Shown: positions 70 through 52,877, counted from the stretch's first letter. The stretch: DNA of 64,000 bases from an uncultured Gammaproteobacteria bacterium (GCA_964540635.1 CAZINP010000001.1:9540-73539); one strand, 5' to 3'. The notes: a model not told the origin generated them from the letters alone. A program made the numbers and translations.

Positions 70-753
70 ATGATACTCAACCCAAAAAAGAAATATCTTC
101 AAATTGCCTTTAACCGCTCAATGGGCGAAGTTTTAAGTATGGTTGGCCAGCTACCTGCCGCAAAAGAGATCTTACTTGAGGCCGGCACGCCGTTTATTAA
201 AGAATACGGCACCATCGGCTTAAGACGCTTGGTTAATTTTTGGGAAAGCATTAATGGTCAAAATGCCTATGTTGTTGCCGACCTTAAATGTATGGATCGC
301 GGCTTTACCGAAGTTTCTGCGGCCAAAAATGCCGGCGCGTCAGCTGCCACTTGCCTAGGCTTGGCCCCAATTGAAACAATTGATGCTTTCATCAAAACCT
401 GCCAAGACTTAAAAATTGATTCAATGGTTGATATGCTCAATGTTGAATTTCCGTTTGAAGTTTTACAACAACTTAAAACTCGACCCGATGTGGTAGTCCT
501 ACACCGTGGTGCAGATCAGGCCCTGAATTCAACCAAGGCTATTCCCTATTATGACATTAGCCGAATCAAGGGCACTTACAATATTGTTATTTCTGTTGCC
601 GGGGGCGAAAAACTGGCCGATGCCAGACGAGCATTTTTTAACAGCGCCGACATTGCCGTTGTCTGGAAAGAATTTTATGAAAACCCCAATAGAGTCGGCG
701 AATTAGCCCAGGAATTTTTAAGTTCAATCAAAGGTTATGGCAAAACCAAATAA
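70..753 (+). CDS. 3-hexulose-6-phosphate synthase-like protein (OMPDC/KGPDC suprafamily)
   Basis: 227 aa. The blocks KYLQIAFN, LLEAGTPFIK, VVADLKCMD and ISVAGG align to the HPS/KGPDC blocks LQVALD, ELGTPL, ADxK and VAGG. The first Asp is replaced by Asn. Confidence 0.6.
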   Translation: MILNPKKKYLQIAFNRSMGEVLSMVGQLPAAKEILLEAGTPFIKEYGTIGLRRLVNFWESINGQNAYVVADLKCMDRGFTEVSAAKNAGASAATCLGLAPIETIDAFIKTCQDLKIDSMVDMLNVEFPFEVLQQLKTRPDVVVLHRGADQALNSTKAIPYYDISRIKGTYNIVISVAGGEKLADARRAFFNSADIAVVWKEFYENPNRVGELAQEFLSSIKGYGKTK

Positions 754-1783
754 AAAAAACTTAAAAATTTTTATTACCACCATTGTCCTACTCGTCCTTT
801 TTTATTCCTTAAGTCTTACAAGCGTTATAAATGGTCGATTCAACCTGGAAACAATTATAAATTTTGGGGTTTTGGCTTTTATTGTTTTTTCGTTTTCAAA
901 AAATAAAAAGAATCGGGATAAAATCATAAAAATGATTTTGGAAAAACAAAATTTAAAAGGCATTAAGATGCAAGATGCGGACCCGGTTTTAGTTAAGAAT
1001 GACTTGGAAGAAATTATGGAATCGATTGTTGGCAAAAATTTGGCCGGAAAAATATCCCAGAATATACCTGATCAAAAATACCAAATTAAAAAAGATGAGT
1101 ATGTCGTTGATATTTTAAAGTCAAAAAACGACATGCGCCTGAACCGAAAAAAGAGATATCTTCAAGTTGCTTTGAACGGCACGCTAAATGATGCCTTATT
1201 AACAATTAATACTTTACCGGTTTCAGAAAAAATCATCATTGAAGCCGGCACGCCCCTGATAAAAATCCATGGCGCTCAAGCCGTTAGGGCAATCAGAAGC
1301 CGCTTGCCGTTTGCCTATATTGTGGCTGACATTAAAATCGCTGATTTAGCCGAAAGAGAAGTTGAAACTTTTAAAAACGCCGGCGCTAACGCCGTTACCG
1401 CTTTGGGCGTAGCCCCGCTTGAAACATTAAACCAATTCGTTTTAGCTTGCAAAAAATACAATGTTGACGCCATGATTGATATGATGAACGTGCCCAGCGC
1501 CATTGAAATTCTTAAAAAAATGAGCGCCTTGCCTGAAGTTGTGATTTTGCATCGCGGCGTGGATGAAACCGAGAAAACCAAAGGAAAATCAATCCCTTAC
1601 TATCAAATTAATCAGATCAAAGGTCAATATAATTTAATTGTTTCCGTGGCCGGCGGCGATACGCCCAAAGAAATTCAGAGCGCCGTTTTCAACGGTGCCA
1701 ATGTGGTGGTTGTTTGGAAAAATTTTGAAACCGGCCAAAGTGTAAAAAATTTAGCGGAAAACTTTTTAAAAGAAATTAAATAA
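737..1783 (+). CDS. Membrane-anchored HPS-like paralog (N-terminal transmembrane segment plus KGPDC-like domain)
   Basis: 348 aa. An N-terminal hydrophobic segment is followed by a Lys-rich linker. The C-terminal 210 aa repeat the HPS-like blocks (RYLQVALN, IIEAGTPLIK, VADIKIAD, VSVAGG). It forms a tandem duplicate with the upstream gene. Confidence 0.55.
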   Translation: MAKPNKKNLKIFITTIVLLVLFYSLSLTSVINGRFNLETIINFGVLAFIVFSFSKNKKNRDKIIKMILEKQNLKGIKMQDADPVLVKNDLEEIMESIVGKNLAGKISQNIPDQKYQIKKDEYVVDILKSKNDMRLNRKKRYLQVALNGTLNDALLTINTLPVSEKIIIEAGTPLIKIHGAQAVRAIRSRLPFAYIVADIKIADLAEREVETFKNAGANAVTALGVAPLETLNQFVLACKKYNVDAMIDMMNVPSAIEILKKMSALPEVVILHRGVDETEKTKGKSIPYYQINQIKGQYNLIVSVAGGDTPKEIQSAVFNGANVVVVWKNFETGQSVKNLAENFLKEIK

Positions 1784-1809
1784 TTAATAAATAATAAATA
1801 ACTAAAACT

Positions 1810-2589
1810 ATGGAAATCGCATTTGCCACTTTTTTCCTCTTCGGAGGGGGCTTCGTGTTCTTTTTTATCATCCTGCCCGGCATCAGAATCATCAACCAAT
1901 ACGAGAGGGGCGTGGTTCTGACCTTGGGCCGCTACTCCGGCACCAGAAATCCCGGTCTAACCTGGATTTTCCCGGTCATTCAAACCATGACCAAAGTTGA
2001 CATCAGAATTTTGACAGTTGATATTCCTCAACAAGAAGCCATCACCAAAGATAATGTACCGGTTGGCATAAACGGCGTTGTCTATTTTCGCGTGGAAAAA
2101 GCCGAAATGGTCGTCTTAGAAATTCAAAATTACAAAATGGCCGTCAGCCAATACGCTCAAGCGGCCTTGCGCGATGTCATCGGTTCCGTTGAGCTTGATT
2201 CACTGTTAACCGAACGAGATAAAATCGCCGAAGAAATTGAAAAAATTGTTACAACCGCAGTTAATCCTTGGGGCGTCAGTGTTTCCAGTATCAAAATCCA
2301 AGACATCGAACTGCCGGCTGATATGAAACGCGTTATGGCCAAACAAGCCGAAAGCGAACGCGAAAGACGTGCGGTAATTATCAGAGCCGAAGGCGAATTA
2401 AAAGCTTCAGAAAATTTGGCTGCGGCGGCCAATAAATTAGCAACGGCTCCGGGCGGTTTATCTTTAAGAACTCTAAAAACAATTGAAGCGATTAATCCCG
2501 ACCCGTCCAAAACCGTTATCTTTGCCCTTCCGGTTGAAGTCATGCAGGGTATTGCGGCCATTGGTGCAAACTTTGTCGGTAAAAAATAA
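1810..2589 (+). CDS. SPFH/band-7 (stomatin/prohibitin-like) membrane protein
   Basis: An N-terminal transmembrane segment is followed by a stomatin-like core (QYERGVVLTLGRY...NPGLTWIFPVIQ...VDIRILTVDIP) and a C-terminal coiled coil. Confidence 0.85.
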   Translation: MEIAFATFFLFGGGFVFFFIILPGIRIINQYERGVVLTLGRYSGTRNPGLTWIFPVIQTMTKVDIRILTVDIPQQEAITKDNVPVGINGVVYFRVEKAEMVVLEIQNYKMAVSQYAQAALRDVIGSVELDSLLTERDKIAEEIEKIVTTAVNPWGVSVSSIKIQDIELPADMKRVMAKQAESERERRAVIIRAEGELKASENLAAAANKLATAPGGLSLRTLKTIEAINPDPSKTVIFALPVEVMQGIAAIGANFVGKK

Positions 2590-2641: not shown

Positions 2642-3781
2642 TTATTTTTTCTTCGGTGCGGAAATATCAGCTTTTAACCAAAACGCGCCGAAATAAGTTG
2701 AGATTGGCATAGACATTGCCACCCCGATACTGCCAACCAAAGTTCTGACAATTTCTGTTGCCACCACTTCGTTATTAATAATTTGATTAAAGGTCAAATA
2801 TGGTTCTTGTTTTAAGGTAAACAATAGCAACAACGGCAAAGAGGCGCCGGCATAAGTTAAAAAAAGCGTATTAACAATTGCGCCCAAATGAGTGTTACCA
2901 ACGCGATAAGCCATTTTAAAAACTTGCATCGGTTTTAAATTGGGATTCGCTTCTTTTATCTGCTTAACTGCCTCCAGCTGACCAACGATTATATCATCCA
3001 AAACCCCAACCGCGCCAATTAAAATACCGGCTAAAAGCAACCCCTTAAAATCAATTGCCTTTTGACCGACGCCGATTAAAAAAACCGACTCCTCCTGGGC
3101 AAAACCGGTTAAACGAGTCATGGCGGTAAACACCGAAGAAAGAATAACAATAAGCACAAGGGAAAAAGTAACGCTTATAATTGCCAAGTGAGATTTTTTA
3201 TGCCAGCCCTCAGTTAAATAAATTATAATCGTCAAAATTGTTAAAGAGCCGATTACGCTGATTAAAAAAGGATTTGCGCCATTTAAAATTTTAGGCAAAA
3301 TAAAATAAACAATTATTAAGAACGTTGCGATCAAACTAATGAGCGCTTTTATTCCCTTACTTCCCCCAATGATAATCGTAACGACGGCAAAAATAAAAGT
3401 TAAAAGATAAATTGGGTTGCGACGGACAATATCAATTATAAAATAATTGCTTTGGCCGTCTGGCGTCTCAGTTTTTTGAACTAAAACCCGATCGCCAACC
3501 TTATAATGATTCACACTCACAAAGTCAATCTCAGAAATACCATTAATCTCTATTTCTTTATTTTTATCTTCCCCTTCAAGCCCTTTTAATAAAAGATCTT
3601 GCTGGGTTGCCTTATCGCCGTCTTCACGAGCGATTTCTTTTTCTTCTAAAATTTTTATTACTCTGGCTTCAAAAATCGTCTCGGTTGGAACAACCTCATC
3701 AGGCATGGCTTCTTGGGCAAAAAGATTAACCGGATAAGATAGGATAAATAAAAATAAAAAAATGAATATTTTTTTTAACAT
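2642..3781 (-). CDS. YibE/F-family integral membrane protein
   Basis: A signal/anchor sequence and a soluble N-domain are followed by a polytopic C-terminal half typical of YibE/F. Confidence 0.55.
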   Translation of the reverse strand: MLKKIFIFLFLFILSYPVNLFAQEAMPDEVVPTETIFEARVIKILEEKEIAREDGDKATQQDLLLKGLEGEDKNKEIEINGISEIDFVSVNHYKVGDRVLVQKTETPDGQSNYFIIDIVRRNPIYLLTFIFAVVTIIIGGSKGIKALISLIATFLIIVYFILPKILNGANPFLISVIGSLTILTIIIYLTEGWHKKSHLAIISVTFSLVLIVILSSVFTAMTRLTGFAQEESVFLIGVGQKAIDFKGLLLAGILIGAVGVLDDIIVGQLEAVKQIKEANPNLKPMQVFKMAYRVGNTHLGAIVNTLFLTYAGASLPLLLLFTLKQEPYLTFNQIINNEVVATEIVRTLVGSIGVAMSMPISTYFGAFWLKADISAPKKK

Positions 3782-3785
3782 AGAT

Positions 3786-5099
3786 TTAGTTAAACATTAG
3801 CCAGCCCGGCTTAAAAATTAACAACAAACCAACTGTAAATAAAATTAATCCGCCTGCCAACCTGGAATATCTGGCATATTTCGTAGTAACTCCTGTCATC
3901 TCTAATGTTATCATTGCAAGTAAAAAGACAAAAATATCATCAAGCATAAAGAAAAAAATGTACAACAAAATCAAAAAATAATACTGCCAACTTGATAAAT
4001 TATTTAAAGCCAAGACTTGAGTATAGATCGCCGGCAAACCAGCCGAACAAACCAATTCAACCAAATTTACAACAAAGGCCAAAACGATAATGCCAAAAAT
4101 CGCTAAAATAAAATTTTTTTGTAAAGCTACCGCCTTTAATTTCTTAAAAACTTTTTGACGATTCTCACTATTAGTAACCTTGCAGCCACTGTCTTTATCT
4201 ACAAAAAATGCACGCACACTGTAAGAGCCCCCGGCCAAAGCGAATAAACCAACCAACAGTCTTACCCAAAAAACAAAGCCTAAAAATAAGATAAAGTTTA
4301 GCCATGCCGACATAAACAAAAAGTAAACCGAAGCCGACGCAACAATAAAAATAATTCCCAAAGTCCACATTCGCCTCTTATCTTCCATTCCCAGAAGCAA
4401 GCTGATTAAAAACAAAAGCGTCCATAAAGCGCAAGGATTGAATCCATCCAACGATCCTATAATCACCGCCAGGATCGGCAGAGAAAATTTAATTATATTT
4501 ACTTCTCCAAATATTGGCAACTTAATTCTTTGATCAACTCCACTCTCAGCTTCCCCCAAAAAATCCAATCCAACATTATCCTCAAATGGTTTATCTAATT
4601 CTTCCACTCCAGACTGTGTCGGCGTGTTTTGCTCAACGCTATCCACTTCTACAAATCCTTCTCTTATAGCATTTTCCTGGTAAGAAATCGTTTTTACGTT
4701 AACAATCTCGGCGACTGAATCGGGACATAATTCCTTGCTGCACTCTAAAACACGCTTTGATATCGCCGATGATGTCATACCATTGGCATATCCGATGAAA
4801 TAAGTATCACCAATCACCAAAAAAGGCACTCCATTGACTCCGGCGTTTAACTTTTCAGCTACCTTTTGCAAAATTTCTATATTGTCAAAATCGTTATAGA
4901 TTTCAAATTCAAAAACGTTCAAGTTGGGATAATTTTCCTTTAACTCACTATTTATAAACACTCTTTCAGCGCTACAGTGAGGACAAGTACTACCATAGAA
5001 AAGATAAGCGTTAACCGGAAATGTTACGGCTTTAACGGGAATTAAAACCAAGAAAAAAAATAAACTGATAGAAAATAAATATTTAAATAGATGTCTCAT
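3786..5099 (-). CDS. Thioredoxin-like (CPHC) domain fused to a CcdA/DsbD-type transmembrane thiol-disulfide transporter
   Basis: The N-terminus has a signal peptide and a YGSTCPHCSAE glutaredoxin/thioredoxin-like CxxC motif. The C-terminal multi-transmembrane core carries GFNPCALW and LVCSAGLP Cys motifs like the CcdA/DsbD beta domain. Confidence 0.65.
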   Translation of the reverse strand: MRHLFKYLFSISLFFFLVLIPVKAVTFPVNAYLFYGSTCPHCSAERVFINSELKENYPNLNVFEFEIYNDFDNIEILQKVAEKLNAGVNGVPFLVIGDTYFIGYANGMTSSAISKRVLECSKELCPDSVAEIVNVKTISYQENAIREGFVEVDSVEQNTPTQSGVEELDKPFEDNVGLDFLGEAESGVDQRIKLPIFGEVNIIKFSLPILAVIIGSLDGFNPCALWTLLFLISLLLGMEDKRRMWTLGIIFIVASASVYFLFMSAWLNFILFLGFVFWVRLLVGLFALAGGSYSVRAFFVDKDSGCKVTNSENRQKVFKKLKAVALQKNFILAIFGIIVLAFVVNLVELVCSAGLPAIYTQVLALNNLSSWQYYFLILLYIFFFMLDDIFVFLLAMITLEMTGVTTKYARYSRLAGGLILFTVGLLLIFKPGWLMFN

Positions 5100-43128: not shown

Positions 43129-44289
43129 CTACTCGGGCTGAATTTCAATCACTTCGCCACCGCCAAACTTGGAGTGGATTAAAACCGAAGGATTACGACC
43201 GGCTGGCGTGGGCAGAATCTTGCCGGCCACTTTTGCGGTTACACCAAACTTCACTGCCAAATGGCAGAATTGCGCAACGTCAGACTCATCAATGACAACC
43301 AGCATTCCCTGGCCGCAATTCCAGGTGTCGTAGCAGTCATTTACGGACATGCCACGCCAATCAGCGCAAAGCCGAACGATCTCCGGCGGCTCGAAAAGGT
43401 CGTCCAATATCGCCGAGAAACCCTGGGGAAAAAGAACGTCGCGGGCAAATTTGCTCTTGATTGAGCCGCCGGTAACGTGAGCAATCAAGTGCATCCTAAC
43501 CAGCGGCAGAAAGTCGGCTTCATACCAGCCGTGAAGCTTAGTCAAAAAGCAATCATACAAGAATGAGGGCACGGCAGCCGAACGAAGATGCTCCTTTGCC
43601 TCCGGCTCAATGGCCCAATTGTCGCCGAAACGCTTGGCAAAAGCTTTGCGCACAGAGCTGATGCCGTTGCTGCGAAACCCATTCTCTTGCAGAGCCACGA
43701 CAACTTGTCCGGGCGCCAAAGTGTCACCGAGAATCATTTTGTCCGGGTGGTAGGCACCGATTGCAAACCCGGACCAATTGTATTTTGCCGTAGCCGCCTC
43801 ATTGCTGGAACCAACACACACGCCAAGCTCGGCGGTTTCACCGCAAAGCATGACCATTTGGTTGTTGCCGCAAGCCACCATCAGGCCGTTAATCAACTGC
43901 CGAAAAGCCTGATTGGTTTGGTCTCCGGCTTGGCCAAGGGTGCAGACGTCCAAAACATTGCAGAAAACCAGAGGTATGCCACCCCAGCGCGTAATGTCAC
44001 CGGCCGTCATGGCCAGCACGTCTTTTCCGGAAGCAAAATGAAACCCTGCGGCATCAGAAATTATCACTTTGGTTCCGATTCCGTCCGGCGCACACGCCAA
44101 GCTACTGCCGGGCAGTAGGCCCTCAACGGTAAATCCACGAGGCCCGCGGAAGTGGCCACGAGAAAAATCATGGATCTTAACAAACGGGCTTGCCTCATAA
44201 GTTCCGCGGCAACACTTTGCCGCAAAGGCGCTAAAGCTATCGCCTTCTTTTACGTTTACACCATCCCGGGTGTAGGGATCATTGCTCAT
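43129..44289 (-). CDS. PurM-like (AIR synthase family) protein, GC-rich cassette
   Basis: PYTRDGVNV, DGIGTKV, CGETAE, SNGISSVRK, IAHVTGG and NCGQGM align to the PurM blocks. GC is about 55% in a roughly 40% GC genome. The start is taken at M28 of the track ORF. Confidence 0.7.
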   Translation of the reverse strand: MSNDPYTRDGVNVKEGDSFSAFAAKCCRGTYEASPFVKIHDFSRGHFRGPRGFTVEGLLPGSSLACAPDGIGTKVIISDAAGFHFASGKDVLAMTAGDITRWGGIPLVFCNVLDVCTLGQAGDQTNQAFRQLINGLMVACGNNQMVMLCGETAELGVCVGSSNEAATAKYNWSGFAIGAYHPDKMILGDTLAPGQVVVALQENGFRSNGISSVRKAFAKRFGDNWAIEPEAKEHLRSAAVPSFLYDCFLTKLHGWYEADFLPLVRMHLIAHVTGGSIKSKFARDVLFPQGFSAILDDLFEPPEIVRLCADWRGMSVNDCYDTWNCGQGMLVVIDESDVAQFCHLAVKFGVTAKVAGKILPTPAGRNPSVLIHSKFGGGEVIEIQPE

Positions 44290-44500
44290 TGTTTTCTCCT
44301 TTTCTGTAGTAGACAACACCGCCCACTTTTCTGGAAACAACCACCAAACGTTCTTTTTGAAGAGCCTCAATCGCTCTTTCCACCTCCTGGTGAGTACAAA
44401 AACCCAATGAGGCCGTTAGCGATCGCTTAAGAGCACAAACATTGCAGTCGCTGCTGTGCTCCAAAATCTTCAAAACTTCACCCTGTACATCCCTAGACAT
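44279..44500 (-). CDS. Small winged-helix-like protein, translationally coupled to the PurM-like gene
   Basis: 73 aa from the ATG at 44500, preceded by AAGGAAAGGAAA. The GC-rich part begins exactly here. The stop overlaps the PurM-like ATG (ATGAGCAATGA). Confidence 0.45.
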   Translation of the reverse strand: MSRDVQGEVLKILEHSSDCNVCALKRSLTASLGFCTHQEVERAIEALQKERLVVVSRKVGGVVYYRKGENNEQ

Positions 44501-48230: not shown

Positions 48231-48315
48231 GCGGACGTGGCGGAATTGGTATACGCGCATGCTTGAGGTGCATGTGCCGCAAGGCTTGGAGGTTCGAGTC
48301 CTCTCGTCCGCACCA
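48231..48315 (+). tRNA. tRNA-Leu (GAG)
   Basis: 85 nt with acceptor GCGGACG/CGTCCGC, anticodon loop TT-GAG-GT, a long variable arm and CCA encoded. Confidence 0.85.
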
Positions 48316-48335
48316 ATTAGAAATAAAATTAATTT

Positions 48336-48409
48336 GGGCAGCTAGCTCAGTTGGTTAGAGCGCCTCGTTTACACCGAGGAGGTCATAGGTTCGACTCCTA
48401 TGCTGCCCA
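48336..48409 (+). tRNA. tRNA-Val (UAC)
   Basis: Acceptor GGGCAGC/GCTGCCC and anticodon stem CCTCG/CGAGG with loop TT-TAC-AC. CCA is not encoded. Confidence 0.8.
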
Positions 48410-48424
48410 TTTAAAACCAAAAAT

Positions 48425-48679
48425 ATGTTTCAATTTTTTCTTGGCTTAATTATTGTCATTGTCGGCGCTGTAGTTACTATCAAATCAGACTGGTTTTACA
48501 GAAACTTTGGACCAATCCCCTCATTTGATAAATATTTGGGAACTGAAGGTGGCAGTCGTCTTGGCTATCAAGTAATCGGAATTATTGCCTGCATCATCGG
48601 TTTCATGGTTATGACAAATTTAATTGGCGTCTTCTTGATGGCAACGGTTGGTAGACTTTTTACCGGAAGATTAAACTAA
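48425..48679 (+). CDS. Small two-transmembrane membrane protein (hypothetical)
   Basis: 84 aa with two clear hydrophobic helices, lying between tRNA genes. No Shine-Dalgarno, which is common in this genome. Confidence 0.4.
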   Translation: MFQFFLGLIIVIVGAVVTIKSDWFYRNFGPIPSFDKYLGTEGGSRLGYQVIGIIACIIGFMVMTNLIGVFLMATVGRLFTGRLN

Positions 48680-48694
48680 ACATAAAATATTTTT

Positions 48695-48771
48695 GGGCCC
48701 GTAGTTCAGCTGGTTAGAATGCCTCGTTTGCAACGAGGAGGTCAGCGGTTCGAATCCGCTCGGGTCCACCA
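48695..48771 (+). tRNA. tRNA-Ala (UGC)
   Basis: The G3:U70 identity pair is present (GGGCCCG/CGGGTCC). Anticodon loop TT-TGC-AA. CCA is encoded and followed by a U-G hairpin plus T-run. Confidence 0.9.
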
Positions 48772-48853
48772 AAAAATCTCAGTTATGGGATTTTTTTGTT
48801 TGATTTATATAAAAAAATTTGCTAAAATTTAAACGAATTATTAATATTCAAAT

Positions 48854-50401
48854 ATGGACAACCCGGAGAAACAAGGTTATATACCAAGCCAAGAGCAGGA
48901 AAATGCAAACCAAGAAAAAAACGGATTTACTGAAAGCGTCAAAGCAATTGATGAGTTATATCAATTGGTTGTTGACGACGCAGATATGGAAGCAAATAAG
49001 GAAAAAATTCTTCAACTTACCGAAAGAATACTATCTGCATATAATGTATTGGATCATTTCAAAAGAGGTGATGAAGAAAAAGTGGAAGAAAACAATGTGA
49101 ATCCAGTTTCTCCTAAAATTCTGGAGCTACTCCCAACTCTTTCCAAAATGAAAGTAATTCATGGTGCGTTTTCAAAAAAAGATGAAAACGGGCAATCATT
49201 AATTGACAAAAATCCTCAATTAAATTTTTCAATCCGTTTGTTGGAAAGTGACATCAGATACATATTATATGATGGGATTTTACGTCTAGACAATAAAACT
49301 TTAACTGAAATTGATCCGCATCAAGCCAGGGATCTTCTTTTACTTCTTAGATTATCACTAGCCAAAGGCAATGACTCTGAGATAACTGATACGCTCAATT
49401 TTCTTAAAAATTATAAGAATTTATTTGAAAGACTCAATCAATCAAATGGTTCTTTGGAAATCGCAAATGAATATGCCAAACTTCAAGATTTCTTAGACAC
49501 CGAAGAATTTGCAAGAAACCTGATAAGATCATTACACTTTAAACAAACAACATCCAAATCAACTGACACATACCTTGAAAATCAAGAGGGACTCCTTGAA
49601 AGAATTTTTATCAAGTTCGGCCTGAAGCCTGAAGAATTTTATGACATCCTGGACGCATGGGATAGCTTCAATGACGAATCCCGTAAAGATAATATTTTAG
49701 AAGCAAACATGAATACAATCCTCGATTTGGAAAAAGCACGGCTCGGCATCATTGTATTGCTTTATAGAGAATTTGGCATTAGAAACTTTAATCGCTACCC
49801 AAAATCAATTTTAATTGCTCAATTTGACGAATTTAAAAATAATGAAAAGCCTTATGGAATAATCCTTCAGGCCACTCACGACTGGAATAGCGCTTTTTCT
49901 CACAACAATGATGTGTGGGAGGATTTATTCTCTCAAATTAAGGATCAATATGGCTTAAGAATTATTGAAGCCAAAAGCAGGACCGAAATTGCCAGGAATT
50001 TAATTAAACTTAACAGAAGATACGGAGCAAATCATAAAATATCTTTTGCGTTTATTGGTGGTCATGGCAGCAAAAATTCAATTACTCTCGGTAACGAGGA
50101 GGATGACTCTCGAATATTAATTGAAGATTTTTTAGGCAGAGGAGTAAAAAGATTAGGTAATTTTTTTGAACCGAACCCGACCATAGTCTTAAATTCATGT
50201 TCAACCGGAAAAATGGGCGGCATTGGTCAAAGGATGTCAGAAACATACGACACAAAAATAATTGCACCAAATATTCCCGCCTCTCTTAAGAAAATTAATG
50301 CCATAATTTCAAATGGAAATATTGATTTTGATATAAAGTATACAAAAAAAGGAAGAAACAAAAAAGTTGATCAAGCTTTTTCTTCCGGTAAAAAAATATA
50401 A
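48854..50401 (+). CDS. Hypothetical protein with N-terminal helical domain and C-terminal caspase-like (peptidase C14/CHAT-fold) candidate His-Cys dyad
   Basis: The C-terminal 200 aa follow caspase-fold topology: GIILQATHDW, then RIIEAKSRTEIARNLIKL, ISFAFIGGHGS, about 48 aa, then PTIVLNSCSTG. The His to Cys spacing is about 48 aa, as in caspases. The N-terminal 300 aa have no recognised domain. Confidence 0.4.
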   Translation: MDNPEKQGYIPSQEQENANQEKNGFTESVKAIDELYQLVVDDADMEANKEKILQLTERILSAYNVLDHFKRGDEEKVEENNVNPVSPKILELLPTLSKMKVIHGAFSKKDENGQSLIDKNPQLNFSIRLLESDIRYILYDGILRLDNKTLTEIDPHQARDLLLLLRLSLAKGNDSEITDTLNFLKNYKNLFERLNQSNGSLEIANEYAKLQDFLDTEEFARNLIRSLHFKQTTSKSTDTYLENQEGLLERIFIKFGLKPEEFYDILDAWDSFNDESRKDNILEANMNTILDLEKARLGIIVLLYREFGIRNFNRYPKSILIAQFDEFKNNEKPYGIILQATHDWNSAFSHNNDVWEDLFSQIKDQYGLRIIEAKSRTEIARNLIKLNRRYGANHKISFAFIGGHGSKNSITLGNEEDDSRILIEDFLGRGVKRLGNFFEPNPTIVLNSCSTGKMGGIGQRMSETYDTKIIAPNIPASLKKINAIISNGNIDFDIKYTKKGRNKKVDQAFSSGKKI

Positions 50402-50535: not shown

Positions 50536-50661
50536 ATGCCTGCAAAAAAGAAAGCGGCTAAGAAAAAGGTAGCAAAAAGAAAGCCGGCCAAAAAAGTAAC
50601 CAAGAAAAAGGTTGCTAAGAAAAAACCGGCTAAAAAGAAAGTAGCCAAAAAGAGAAGATAA
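50536..50661 (+). CDS. 41-aa Lys/Ala-rich basic peptide (histone H1/HctB-like KAKK repeats)
   Basis: MPAKKKAAKKKVAKRKPAKKVTKKKVAKKKPAKKKVAKKRR. A perfect SD AAAGGAGG lies 7 nt upstream, with the promoter above and a terminator below. It falls below the ORF-track length cutoff. Confidence 0.6.
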   Translation: MPAKKKAAKKKVAKRKPAKKVTKKKVAKKKPAKKKVAKKRR

Positions 50662-50710: not shown

Positions 50711-51958
50711 TTAAATCAATTTGTCTTGTTTTGGTTTAACGGCTTTAATATTTACGCCAACCTTGCCATACACGCCATCATAACCCGGGGTAATTTTTAC
50801 ATTACCATTTCTTACAGCCAAAATTCCCTGAGCAATTTCTTTGGTGGTTATGTTTTTTAATTCCTCCGGAGTTTTATCAAGTAATATGGCAAACTCATTA
50901 TCACCCTTTTTTATCGCTTCAAAATAATAATTCATTACTTTTTTTGAAGCCTTGCCAACACCGTAAATGTCACTGATAATTTCAGCTAGAGGCACCAAAG
51001 ATTTATAACCAATTGTATCCAACTTATACCCAGCCGGCCTGTCAGCCAAAGCGGCGACTCGATTTAAACCGCCAATCGTCAAAGGTTTTTTGCAAACCGG
51101 ACAAATATTGTTTAATTTTTTTGACTCTTCCGGCAGAAGCGAAACCTTGCAAGCACCGTGACCATCAAGGTGATATTTTCCCTCTTCCGGATAAAATTCA
51201 ATGGTGTACAAAAATCTTTTTTTATCTTTTTTAATTAAAATCTGCGATAAATTATCAAAATCAAAATCATTTTTTACAAATTCAAAAACATTTGCCTCTC
51301 GGCCGAGATTGCTGGGAGAATGAGCATCGGAATTTGAAACCAAGGTAATTTTATCAAGTGCCGAAAGACGCCAATTCATTGGCGGGTCAGAAGATAGGCC
51401 GGTTTCAATCGCATAAATATATTTTTCATATTCGCCGAAACACTCACCTAAAGAATCAAATCCGGAGTATGAACCAAAAACCGAAAACCACGGCGTCCAA
51501 ACGTGAGCCGGGATTATTAATGTTTTTGGATTCACCCCAAAAACAATCGCCGCCAAATCTTTGGCAGATATTCCCATGATCGGTCGACCGTCTGATTTCA
51601 AATTTACCTTTCGCTTTTCCAATTCTAAAATTATTTTATCAACCGTCTCAAAATCAGGCGCTAAAAGACAAGTGTGGATACGTCGCGTTTTCCCTCCTTG
51701 AGAATAAATAGAAGAAAGTTCCGAGCTTAAAATAAAACGAGTTGAGTTTTTATCTGACTTCAACTTAAAAAATCCATTCTCGGCCGGCTGCAACTTTGAC
51801 TTTAATTCTTTAAGCCAGGCCGGATGCGTAAAGTCGCCGGTAGCGACCAAATCAATCCCCTTTATTTTTGCCCATTCGTTTATGTGTTCCAAATCTAAAT
51901 CTTTCGAGCAAGCGCGCGAATATTTTGAATGGATGTGGAGGTCGGCAATAATTCTCAT
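50711..51958 (-). CDS. PHP-domain protein with internal Cys4 zinc-ribbon, endonuclease Q-like
   Basis: The N-terminal metal-binding motif ADLHIHSKYSRACS, an internal CPVCKKPLT zinc ribbon and a C-terminal helical region match the EndoQ/TIGR00375-like architecture. Confidence 0.45.
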   Translation of the reverse strand: MRIIADLHIHSKYSRACSKDLDLEHINEWAKIKGIDLVATGDFTHPAWLKELKSKLQPAENGFFKLKSDKNSTRFILSSELSSIYSQGGKTRRIHTCLLAPDFETVDKIILELEKRKVNLKSDGRPIMGISAKDLAAIVFGVNPKTLIIPAHVWTPWFSVFGSYSGFDSLGECFGEYEKYIYAIETGLSSDPPMNWRLSALDKITLVSNSDAHSPSNLGREANVFEFVKNDFDFDNLSQILIKKDKKRFLYTIEFYPEEGKYHLDGHGACKVSLLPEESKKLNNICPVCKKPLTIGGLNRVAALADRPAGYKLDTIGYKSLVPLAEIISDIYGVGKASKKVMNYYFEAIKKGDNEFAILLDKTPEELKNITTKEIAQGILAVRNGNVKITPGYDGVYGKVGVNIKAVKPKQDKLI

Positions 51959-52049: not shown

Positions 52050-52877
52050 TTAAAAGCATCGCCAATTTTTCAAATGAACATCAACTTCTTGACCGAAACC
52101 GGCCGTTTTCACGTCTTCCAGGGCCGACAAAACGTGAAGAGCATGGGTGCCAAAACGCTCAACTCGATCCTCCTTGTTCGAAGGCGAGTATTCACGATTA
52201 AGCAAACCCAATTCACTGTGATTTTGGTAGATGGCCGGATGCGGCACTTCTACCACTTCTACCGAACCGCCCTCAAAGAGGTAAGAAAGCTTGACCAGCC
52301 CCTCAAGGCAAGTGCCGTAGCGTTCAAGCTTGAGCTCGTGTCCCAAGAAACTTGCAACCAACGCCGGCATAGCCCAGAAACCACTTAAAGGATCAGTGAT
52401 GTCTTTCCATTTTGTTACTGAACGGATGATCGCCGTAAAAGCAACGTTGAGCAAATCGCGGTCAAGGGGCGTGCCATAGCGTTCAGATTCGGGGTGATAG
52501 CGCGAACCGATCACCAAACGAGGCAAATCATCAACACGCAAGCGCGCCAGGATCGGTTCAAGCAAATTGACGTCGTGCTGACCATCAGAATCCATGGTGA
52601 CCAGATAGTCATAACCTTGCTTAACCGTACGCTCATACAGGCGTCGCAGCGAATAGCCCAAGCCGATGTTGCCATTGTTTGAAAGCAGCTTGACCCTATC
52701 GCCAAAAGACAAGACCACATCTTGAGTGTCGTCGTTTGAACCGTCATCGACGACGCAGACATCAAACTCAAGATCTTTGATCGTGCTAGTCACCGCCAGC
52801 AAACGCGGCAAAAAAACTTTCAGGGAAGTTCCCTCATTGCAGGCCGGAACGCCTATCAGACAAACTTTTTTTCTCAT
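52050..52877 (-). CDS. GT2-family glycosyltransferase (DPM1/polyprenol-phosphate glycosyltransferase-like), GC-rich
   Basis: PACNEG, VVDDGSNDDT and TMDSDGQHD (DxD) are present. GC is about 50% against a roughly 40% background. Confidence 0.75.
   Translation of the reverse strand: MRKKVCLIGVPACNEGTSLKVFLPRLLAVTSTIKDLEFDVCVVDDGSNDDTQDVVLSFGDRVKLLSNNGNIGLGYSLRRLYERTVKQGYDYLVTMDSDGQHDVNLLEPILARLRVDDLPRLVIGSRYHPESERYGTPLDRDLLNVAFTAIIRSVTKWKDITDPLSGFWAMPALVASFLGHELKLERYGTCLEGLVKLSYLFEGGSVEVVEVPHPAIYQNHSELGLLNREYSPSNKEDRVERFGTHALHVLSALEDVKTAGFGQEVDVHLKNWRCF

Follow-up and report, generated by a model that had tools for sequence, protein, structure and literature searches.

A 515-residue protein encoded at positions 48854–50401 of a 64,000-nucleotide stretch of DNA, catalogued under an uncultured Gammaproteobacteria bacterium (GCA_964540635.1, CAZINP010000001.1:9540-73539; the whole stretch is henceforth the window), is predicted to be a cysteine peptidase of clan CD, the caspase–hemoglobinase fold. 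In our best reading, the parts of which were weighed jointly and toward which we lean with modest confidence, the enzyme is soluble and cytoplasmic, its family is a divergent sister branch of the Pfam family DUF4347 within clan CD, and its role would be that of a lineage-specific protease, expressed constitutively and with a regulatory or housekeeping function, in preference to an immune or toxin module. The family appears, from the taxonomic labels of its members, to be restricted to the Candidate Phyla Radiation (CPR), or Patescibacteria. What is new is this family-level branch of the clan; the assignment of the fold is in itself unsurprising to a specialist.

The fold prediction rests on AlphaFold2 models built with the family alignment, of which the full-length one is confident (predicted local distance difference test score, pLDDT, 83.7; predicted template modeling score, pTM, 0.80) and that of the domain alone very confident (pLDDT 92.6, pTM 0.90). 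Residues 1 to about 330 are all-helical in the model, and they are followed by an α/β/α sandwich in which DSSP gives the core order β1 (334–340)-α-β2 (367–373)-α-β3 (396–402)-G403-H404-G405...β4 (438–447)-S448-C449-α-β5 (468–472), and then a β-hairpin and a last strand. This is the arrangement by which placement in clan CD is decided: His-Gly follows strand 3, Cys follows strand 4, both strands are hydrophobic, and His precedes Cys. The best structural matches are likewise clan CD peptidases, foremost the DUF4347 protein Tce1 (9qpe_G; score 12.9, 154/178 residues, root-mean-square deviation 3.1 Å) as the closest structure, followed by SAVED-CHAT (8tl0_A, 12.3), the C11 clostripain-like peptidases (9.3–10.1), the gingipains Kgp and RgpB (10.0 and 8.9), caspases (up to 8.8), legumain (8.6), GPI8 (8.4), Raptor (8.3), the C80 cysteine protease domains (CPDs; 7.8–7.9), the meta- and paracaspases (~7.7) and separase (7.1).

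An original prediction, made from the window's sequence, had proposed a caspase-like His-Cys dyad in the C-terminal part of this protein. The open reading frame (ORF) and all the motifs that it quoted are real, and lie in the translation at residues 335–344 (GIILQATHDW), 396–406 (ISFAFIGGHGS), 438–443 (FEPNPT) and 443–452 (TIVLNSCSTG). The topology that it gave skipped one strand–helix unit, and the spacing from His404 to Cys449 is 45 residues where about 48 had been given. The likeness that it saw between FEPNPT and the caspase segment L-x-x-K-P-K is generic only, consisting of a Pro at the entry to strand 4 that sits one residue out of register with respect to the Cys, and we give it no weight. 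Since the fold is that of clan CD and the His and Cys are conserved across homologs (170/170), neither of the two outcomes named there as speaking against the idea, i.e., an unrelated α/β fold or a variable dyad, was found.

The same prediction had regarded the protein as an orphan, and a single-sequence search of it against Pfam, NCBIfam, PADLOC and the PDB indeed returned nothing significant. However, a protein database clustered at 90% identity holds 30 relatives, 32–45% identical to it and all unnamed. An exhaustive hidden Markov model search with a domain profile, made from the C-terminal alignment (residues 283–515), against 1.84 billion representatives at 50% identity recovered 3,203 clusters at E≤1e-3, 1,899 at 1e-10 and 983 at 1e-30. 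The protein is thus no orphan and belongs to a very large family. The annotation of these more than 3,000 clusters is “hypothetical” throughout, and no account of the family was found in the literature on DUF4347, PF14252, CPR clan CD/CHAT/orthocaspase proteins and Saccharibacteria cysteine proteases. Where relatives carry taxonomic labels these are of the CPR only, namely Candidatus Nomurabacteria, “Patescibacteria group”, Candidatus Roizmanbacteria and one distant member from the Saccharimonadales. The window has a single copy of the family, and its start codon fits the aligned N-termini of the homologs.

Asp343, Glu372, His404, Gly405 and Cys449 are identical in all 170 representatives that cover those columns, and Ser448, Thr451, Gly452, Gly402/403 and Arg314 are nearly invariant as well. 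As the mean column identity in the family alignments is about 10–15%, the invariance of these five residues puts the motifs far beyond chance. Even the outlier from the Saccharimonadales (E 3e-19 against the profile) keeps the lead-in as LEHERPGIVRTLYREFGIRNFARY, the Asp, and counterparts of the two catalytic motifs (SDSHALG and NACSLG). The layout of the proteins is constant, the median being 282 residues ahead of the domain and 3 behind it, and a strongly conserved three-helix lead-in always stands ahead of the catalytic core (Table 1). Its conserved positions are N285, E293, G298, L303, FGI 307–309, F312, R314, Y315 and Q323, and it could possibly serve as a lid or as a contact to a substrate or regulator. 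No signal peptide, transmembrane segment or recognizable secretion domain was detected in 170 of 171 family representatives, which is consistent with a soluble, cytoplasmic protein.

The N-terminal region is helical, as had been predicted, and its sequence matches nothing significantly in Pfam, NCBIfam or the PDB; its sub-threshold matches (BIG2_C, YlbD_coat, RefZ and DrmA) were rejected as noise, and in the PDB the full-length profile hit only designed helical repeats and similar proteins. It diverges fast: in a local search, the N-region profile of the protein's own subfamily recognizes only 29 of the 171 representatives. A broader homology search with the N-region alignment returned nothing, the family itself included, and is treated as uninformative. 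Among the long family members no informative fusions were found beyond two cases with C-terminal extensions past the protease domain. The first of these (P0078, residues 495–725) gives a sub-threshold match to AbiEii, a nucleotidyltransferase toxin (17.3 bits against a cutoff of 22.5; E 0.007), and the second (P0032, residues 540–667) is the member in which DUF4347 itself is matched. Both extensions may be genuine fusions, or may have arisen where gene calls ran through on short contigs.

With regard to its place within the clan, DUF4347 is the only Pfam family that recurs by sequence, being matched by 3 of 31 members and then by 6 of 95 (E≤0.1), with weak E-values. One member (P0018) scores 17.9 bits to it across its His-to-Cys region, and P0032, which the family profile matches at E 5e-90 and which is thus a secure member, attains 25.0 bits where the gathering cutoff is 24.6, over positions 14–149 of 164 in the DUF4347 profile. 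For the window protein itself, no match to the DUF4347 model (PF14252) is obtained even at E≤10 and, because it falls below the curated cutoff, it is to be considered a sister or outlier branch and not a DUF4347 member. The Pfam models of Peptidase_C14, C13, C80 and CHAT match no family member (for CHAT, PF12770, among ~125 members scanned), so the profile comparison with C14, CHAT and C13 that the original prediction had suggested comes out negative, and by sequence the family belongs to none of C14, CHAT and C80.

A further connection comes from the family domain profile, which finds 9qpe_G in the PDB at a weak E of 0.42 and aligns His404 with H77 and Cys449 with C131 of that chain. The first residue of the chain is residue 110 of Tce1, which makes the two positions His186 and Cys240 of that protein, the very dyad that has been superposed on the dyad of TcdB (PMC13323088). 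A homology search seeded with the Tce1 fragment yielded two fragments only. The recurring DUF4347 matches, together with the 9qpe_G alignment, lead us to place the family as a probable divergent sister branch of DUF4347.

Tce1, a type VI secretion system (T6SS) cargo effector of Pseudomonas aeruginosa (PA0256, PDB 9QPE chain G), is the nearest solved relative of the family. Unlike Tce1, the window protein has the motifs GGHG and SCSTG, a His–Cys spacing of 45 and not 54 residues, and a different N-terminal region, made up of a helical module of about 280 residues and the three-helix lead-in. Moreover, the family has the extra invariant Asp343 and Glu372, lacks any Hcp or T6SS association, occurs in housekeeping contexts and is apparently confined to the CPR. 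The CHAT proteases (SAVED-CHAT 8TL0, TPR-CHAT/Csx29, HetF and DdvA) are also close, but the family comes without a SAVED, CRISPR or anti-sigma partner, and its catalytic domain falls well short of the usual size of a CHAT domain. The C80 CPDs (TcdA/TcdB and MARTX), with which OspB is grouped, share with the window protein the 45-residue His–Cys spacing and the C-terminal β-hairpin, and the C14 peptidases (caspases, metacaspases and orthocaspases) have the same fold and the same placement of His-Gly and Cys after strands 3 and 4. The C11 and C25 peptidases (clostripain-like enzymes and gingipains), in contrast, are secreted and larger, with extra domains and propeptides, and show no sequence-profile match to the family. 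The lead-in, the variable helical N-module, the two extra invariant acidic residues, the restriction to the CPR and the housekeeping neighborhoods set the family apart from DUF4347/Tce1, CHAT and C80 alike.

The gene neighborhoods of the family, sampled at 12 loci, bear on function. In two of these the gene lies inside the ribosomal superoperon (P0029 and P0030; Table 1). The two proteins are 35% identical over the domain, and the genes are co-directional with their neighbors and separated from the upstream gene by 5–62 nucleotides. Another relative (P0020) comes directly after dnaA, and a tandem pair of paralogs (P0028), 34% identical and with GGHG and SCSTG in both, comes immediately after mreC, an ORF of 137 aa and the gene of a PBP2-type transpeptidase. 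Of the rest, one has a Gmad2 protein on one side and an ABC transporter on the other (P0004), one after a NUDIX gene (P0012), one 0.9 kb from pilM-pilN-pilO (P0007), one adjoins lepA (L005), one a pseudouridine synthase gene (L014), and one has only unannotated neighbors (P0014). The organization is that of a single gene: no partner recurs in the 12 loci, and none of these (0/12) is a recognizable defense island. It is the co-directional, tight packing of relatives among secY/adk/map/infA, dnaA and mreC-PBP2 that makes us favor a housekeeping or regulatory role.

At one metagenomic locus (L013, JGI Ga0209000_1000385), the ortholog (3197–4708) lies wholly inside a 1,953-bp segment flanked by perfect 355-nucleotide inverted repeats (2431–2785 and 4739–5093). 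The repeats code for the same 117 residues, as part of two ORFs that run in opposite directions. A gene for a large serine recombinase (682–2214, minus strand) adjoins the segment, and a second inverted repeat of 158 nucleotides and 99% identity (741–898 and 2279–2436) joins the region of the recombinase gene to the segment edge. Either the segment is a candidate for recombinase-driven inversion, or it is an artefact of metagenome assembly.

By analogy with the enzymology of clan CD, Cys449 would be the nucleophile, acting as a thiolate paired with the imidazolium of His404 as general base, and the backbone amides of Gly405 and Cys449 would form the oxyanion hole, as do those of Gly238 and Cys285 in caspase. 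Asp343 would stand at the position after strand 1 that is held by Arg179 in caspase, Glu152 in gingipain and Asp587 in TcdB. It might either orient His404 or recognize the P1 residue, and the latter option predicts a basic P1 (Arg/Lys). The fast-diverging N-region of about 280 residues, with the lead-in, may be a substrate- or regulator-binding module that gates site-specific cleavage, in an arrangement of helical repeat and clan CD domain like that of separase, HetF and TPR-CHAT. More tentatively still, and as a minority possibility, we envisage a CPR-wide, vertically inherited, constitutive clan CD protease that carries out a lineage-specific regulatory cleavage in a core process, for instance by maturing or turning over a factor of translation, secretion or cell division. 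If this were true, the enzyme would be a bacterial analogue of separase or HetF, the embedding in core operons would reflect that role, and the family would be one of a small number of enzymatic “signature” proteins by which the cell biology of the CPR is defined.

Several points weigh against the housekeeping protease that we favor. The sequence link to any characterized peptidase is weak, comprising E 0.42 to Tce1 and one member barely over the DUF4347 cutoff, and Tce1, the nearest solved relative, is itself only a putative protease. The proposed housekeeping role is based on only the 12 loci and a handful of taxonomic labels. Furthermore, three features are of a kind also met in conflict systems: the hypervariable N-terminal region, the old tandem paralogs (34% identity), and the possible recombinase-associated invertible segment around the L013 ortholog.

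An effector exported by an episymbiotic CPR cell into its host bacterium, with the N-region used for delivery or targeting, is in our estimate unlikely, although it is the alternative that fares best. CPR bacteria are typically episymbionts, the divergence of the N-terminus and the paralogy would fit evolution at a host interface, one relative is the above-mentioned neighbor of pilM-pilN-pilO, and the nearest relatives by both structure and sequence are the T6SS effectors of the DUF4347/Tce1 type. Among the latter, the toxicity of Tce2 to yeast depends on its Cys, being abolished by C115S (PMC13323088). Speaking against such an effector are the near-total lack of signal peptides, transmembrane segments and secretion domains noted above, the absence of linked T6SS or other secretion genes in 11 of the 12 loci, and the housekeeping operon contexts, which point to an intracellular role. 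The CPR are also not known to encode a T6SS.

Slightly below this in our estimate, at low probability, stands a stand-alone immune or abortive-infection protease, in which the variable helical N-region would sense a phage cue and release the clan CD protease onto host or phage proteins, as CHAT is released in SAVED-CHAT and type III-E systems. This was the role hinted at in the original prediction, and it is kept alive by the hypervariability of the N-terminus, the paralogs and the possible invertible segment of L013. However, no PADLOC-DB v2 model matches the window protein (the best being DrmA at E 0.052 and 9.7 bits) or nine of ten diverse members, the only trace among the ten being the sub-threshold AbiEii-like match in the unique tail of P0078, and PHROGs gives no match either. 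Likewise, no conserved partner or sensor gene is seen in the 12 loci, four of the contexts (the two in the ribosomal superoperon and those after dnaA and mreC-PBP2) are of the core-operon kind, no island signature is found next to the tRNA genes of the window, and the family looks broadly vertical across CPR lineages in its distribution rather than patchy. Hence, the suggestion of an abortive-infection effector finds no support.

Viral sequences were surveyed as well. Two scans of viral contigs turned up no family member; one of them, for the motif F-A-[FIL]-I-G-G-H-G as DNA, gave three matches, none of which encodes one. A locus search with a tight alignment, in which the peptide patterns are subfamily-specific, found a single locus in GTDB, four in metagenomes and none in viruses.

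A clan CD enzyme other than a simple endopeptidase, i.e., a transpeptidase or ligase in the manner of the GPI8 transamidase and the legumain-type ligases, or an enzyme of another Cys/His acyl transfer on a peptide or small molecule, is improbable: the closest neighbors (DUF4347, CHAT, C11 and gingipain) are hydrolytic endopeptidases or putative ones, and the contexts show nothing of a ligation pathway. Least credible by far is an inactive caspase-fold scaffold, a pseudoprotease like Raptor or c-FLIP, since all 170 of 170 representatives, very deeply diverged as they are, have His404, Gly405 and Cys449. Pseudoenzymes display the reverse, and the conservation argues for an active enzyme.

CPR bacteria make up a large share of bacterial diversity and have tiny genomes in which many genes are without assigned function. 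The present analysis gives a large block of this dark matter a predicted fold and catalytic dyad, points out two more acidic residues that never vary, and identifies the characterized protein nearest to it. It also extends the DUF4347/Tce-like proteases, recently recognized as T6SS effectors, to a far bigger, non-T6SS and apparently intracellular branch, and corrects a tempting mis-annotation, in that “stand-alone caspase-like” need not mean “abortive infection”. The size of the family, its apparent confinement to the CPR, its embedding in core operons and its link to the newly described Tce effectors are useful and testable points.

Table 1. Features of the gene, its product and its surroundings in the window, and three loci of relatives with their gene orders
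Feature	Position	Strand	Remarks
tRNA-Leu(gag), tRNA-Val(tac), tRNA-Ala(tgc)	48231-48771		directly upstream of the gene
Promoter-like site, TTGATT-17-TGcTAAAAT (extended -10)	48800..48828	+	~25 nt upstream of the ATG; consensus match only
Complete ORF	48854..50401	+	515 aa and stop; ATG start, TAA stop; helical N-terminal region, then predicted C-terminal clan CD (caspase-hemoglobinase fold) domain
N-terminal region, residues 1-282	48854..49699	+	all-alpha, repeat-like
Three-helix lead-in, residues 283-330	49700..49843	+	strongly conserved; always ahead of the catalytic core
Predicted clan CD catalytic core, residues 331-515	49844..50398	+	b1-a-b2-a-b3-His...b4-Cys-a-b5, C-terminal beta-hairpin and final strand
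Asp343 codon, GAC	49880..49882	+	acidic and invariant; post-strand-1 loop
Glu372 codon, GAA	49967..49969	+	invariant; C-terminal end of strand 2
His404-Gly405 codons, CAT GGC	50063..50068	+	predicted general base and oxyanion-hole glycine, directly after strand 3
SCSTG, Ser448-Cys449-Ser-Thr-Gly452	50195..50209	+	predicted nucleophile Cys449, directly after strand 4
Relative P0029	L003:6001-7470		secY-[gene]-pentapeptide protein-adk-map-infA; ribosomal superoperon
Relative P0030	L009:5001-6731		secY-adk-cmk-map-[gene]-infA; ribosomal superoperon
Relatives P0028, tandem paralogs	L008:3397-6755		513 and 584 aa; downstream of mreC, 137-aa ORF and PBP2-type transpeptidase

In the window, the gene comes after cca-rluD-gmk-rplS and, as had been noted originally, directly after the tRNA cluster. 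Its neighbors code for a CCA-adding enzyme, an RluD-type pseudouridine synthase, Gmk, L19, a PHP/MJ0043_C protein, a family-2 glycosyltransferase and nucleotidyltransferases. The earlier observation that no sensor, CRISPR or cyclic oligonucleotide-based antiphage signaling system (CBASS)-like gene lies nearby holds for the window. The promoter-like site ahead of the ATG suggests a separate promoter for the gene, located after tRNA-Ala. A tRNA-adjacent island was considered and rejected: the GC content of the gene (0.34) is like that of its flanks (0.31–0.42; 0.384 for the window), and no direct repeat of a tRNA 3′ end or strong inverted repeat brackets it.

Within the tRNA cluster, an ORF for an 84-aa hydrophobic and apparently multi-transmembrane protein, without a Pfam match, lies between tRNA-Val and tRNA-Ala (48425–48679, plus strand). 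An 84-nucleotide direct repeat of 79% identity (48315–48398 and 48674–48757) corresponds to tRNA-Val(tac) and tRNA-Ala(tgc), each with about 20 nucleotides of 5′ leader, and the AT-rich leader AAnTAnAnATAAAAT, common to both copies, may be a shared promoter or processing signal. Downstream of the peptidase gene, an ORF for an extremely lysine-rich peptide of 41 residues, MPAKKKAAKKKVAKRKPAKKVTKKKVAKKKPAKKKVAKKRR (50536–50661, plus strand), is built from imperfect 15/42-nucleotide repeats. It has a strong Shine–Dalgarno sequence, AAAGGAGG, is followed by a stem-loop and T-run, and figures among the gene calls of the Logan assembly. It has no Pfam match, and may be a basic peptide of a histone-H1-like or nucleic-acid-binding kind.

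The product of the convergent gene that follows (50711–51958, minus strand) is 415 aa long, opens at its N-terminus with a PHP-type HxH start and contains a CxxC zinc-ribbon-like motif. Among precomputed Pfam matches it has one to MJ0043_C, and it would seem to resemble the endonuclease-Q-type PHP nucleases. Finally, two genes on the minus strand are GC outliers relative to the window average, one coding for an AIR-synthase-related (PurM-like) protein (43129–44370, ~0.54) and the other for a family-2 glycosyltransferase (52050–52877, ~0.51), and both were possibly acquired horizontally.
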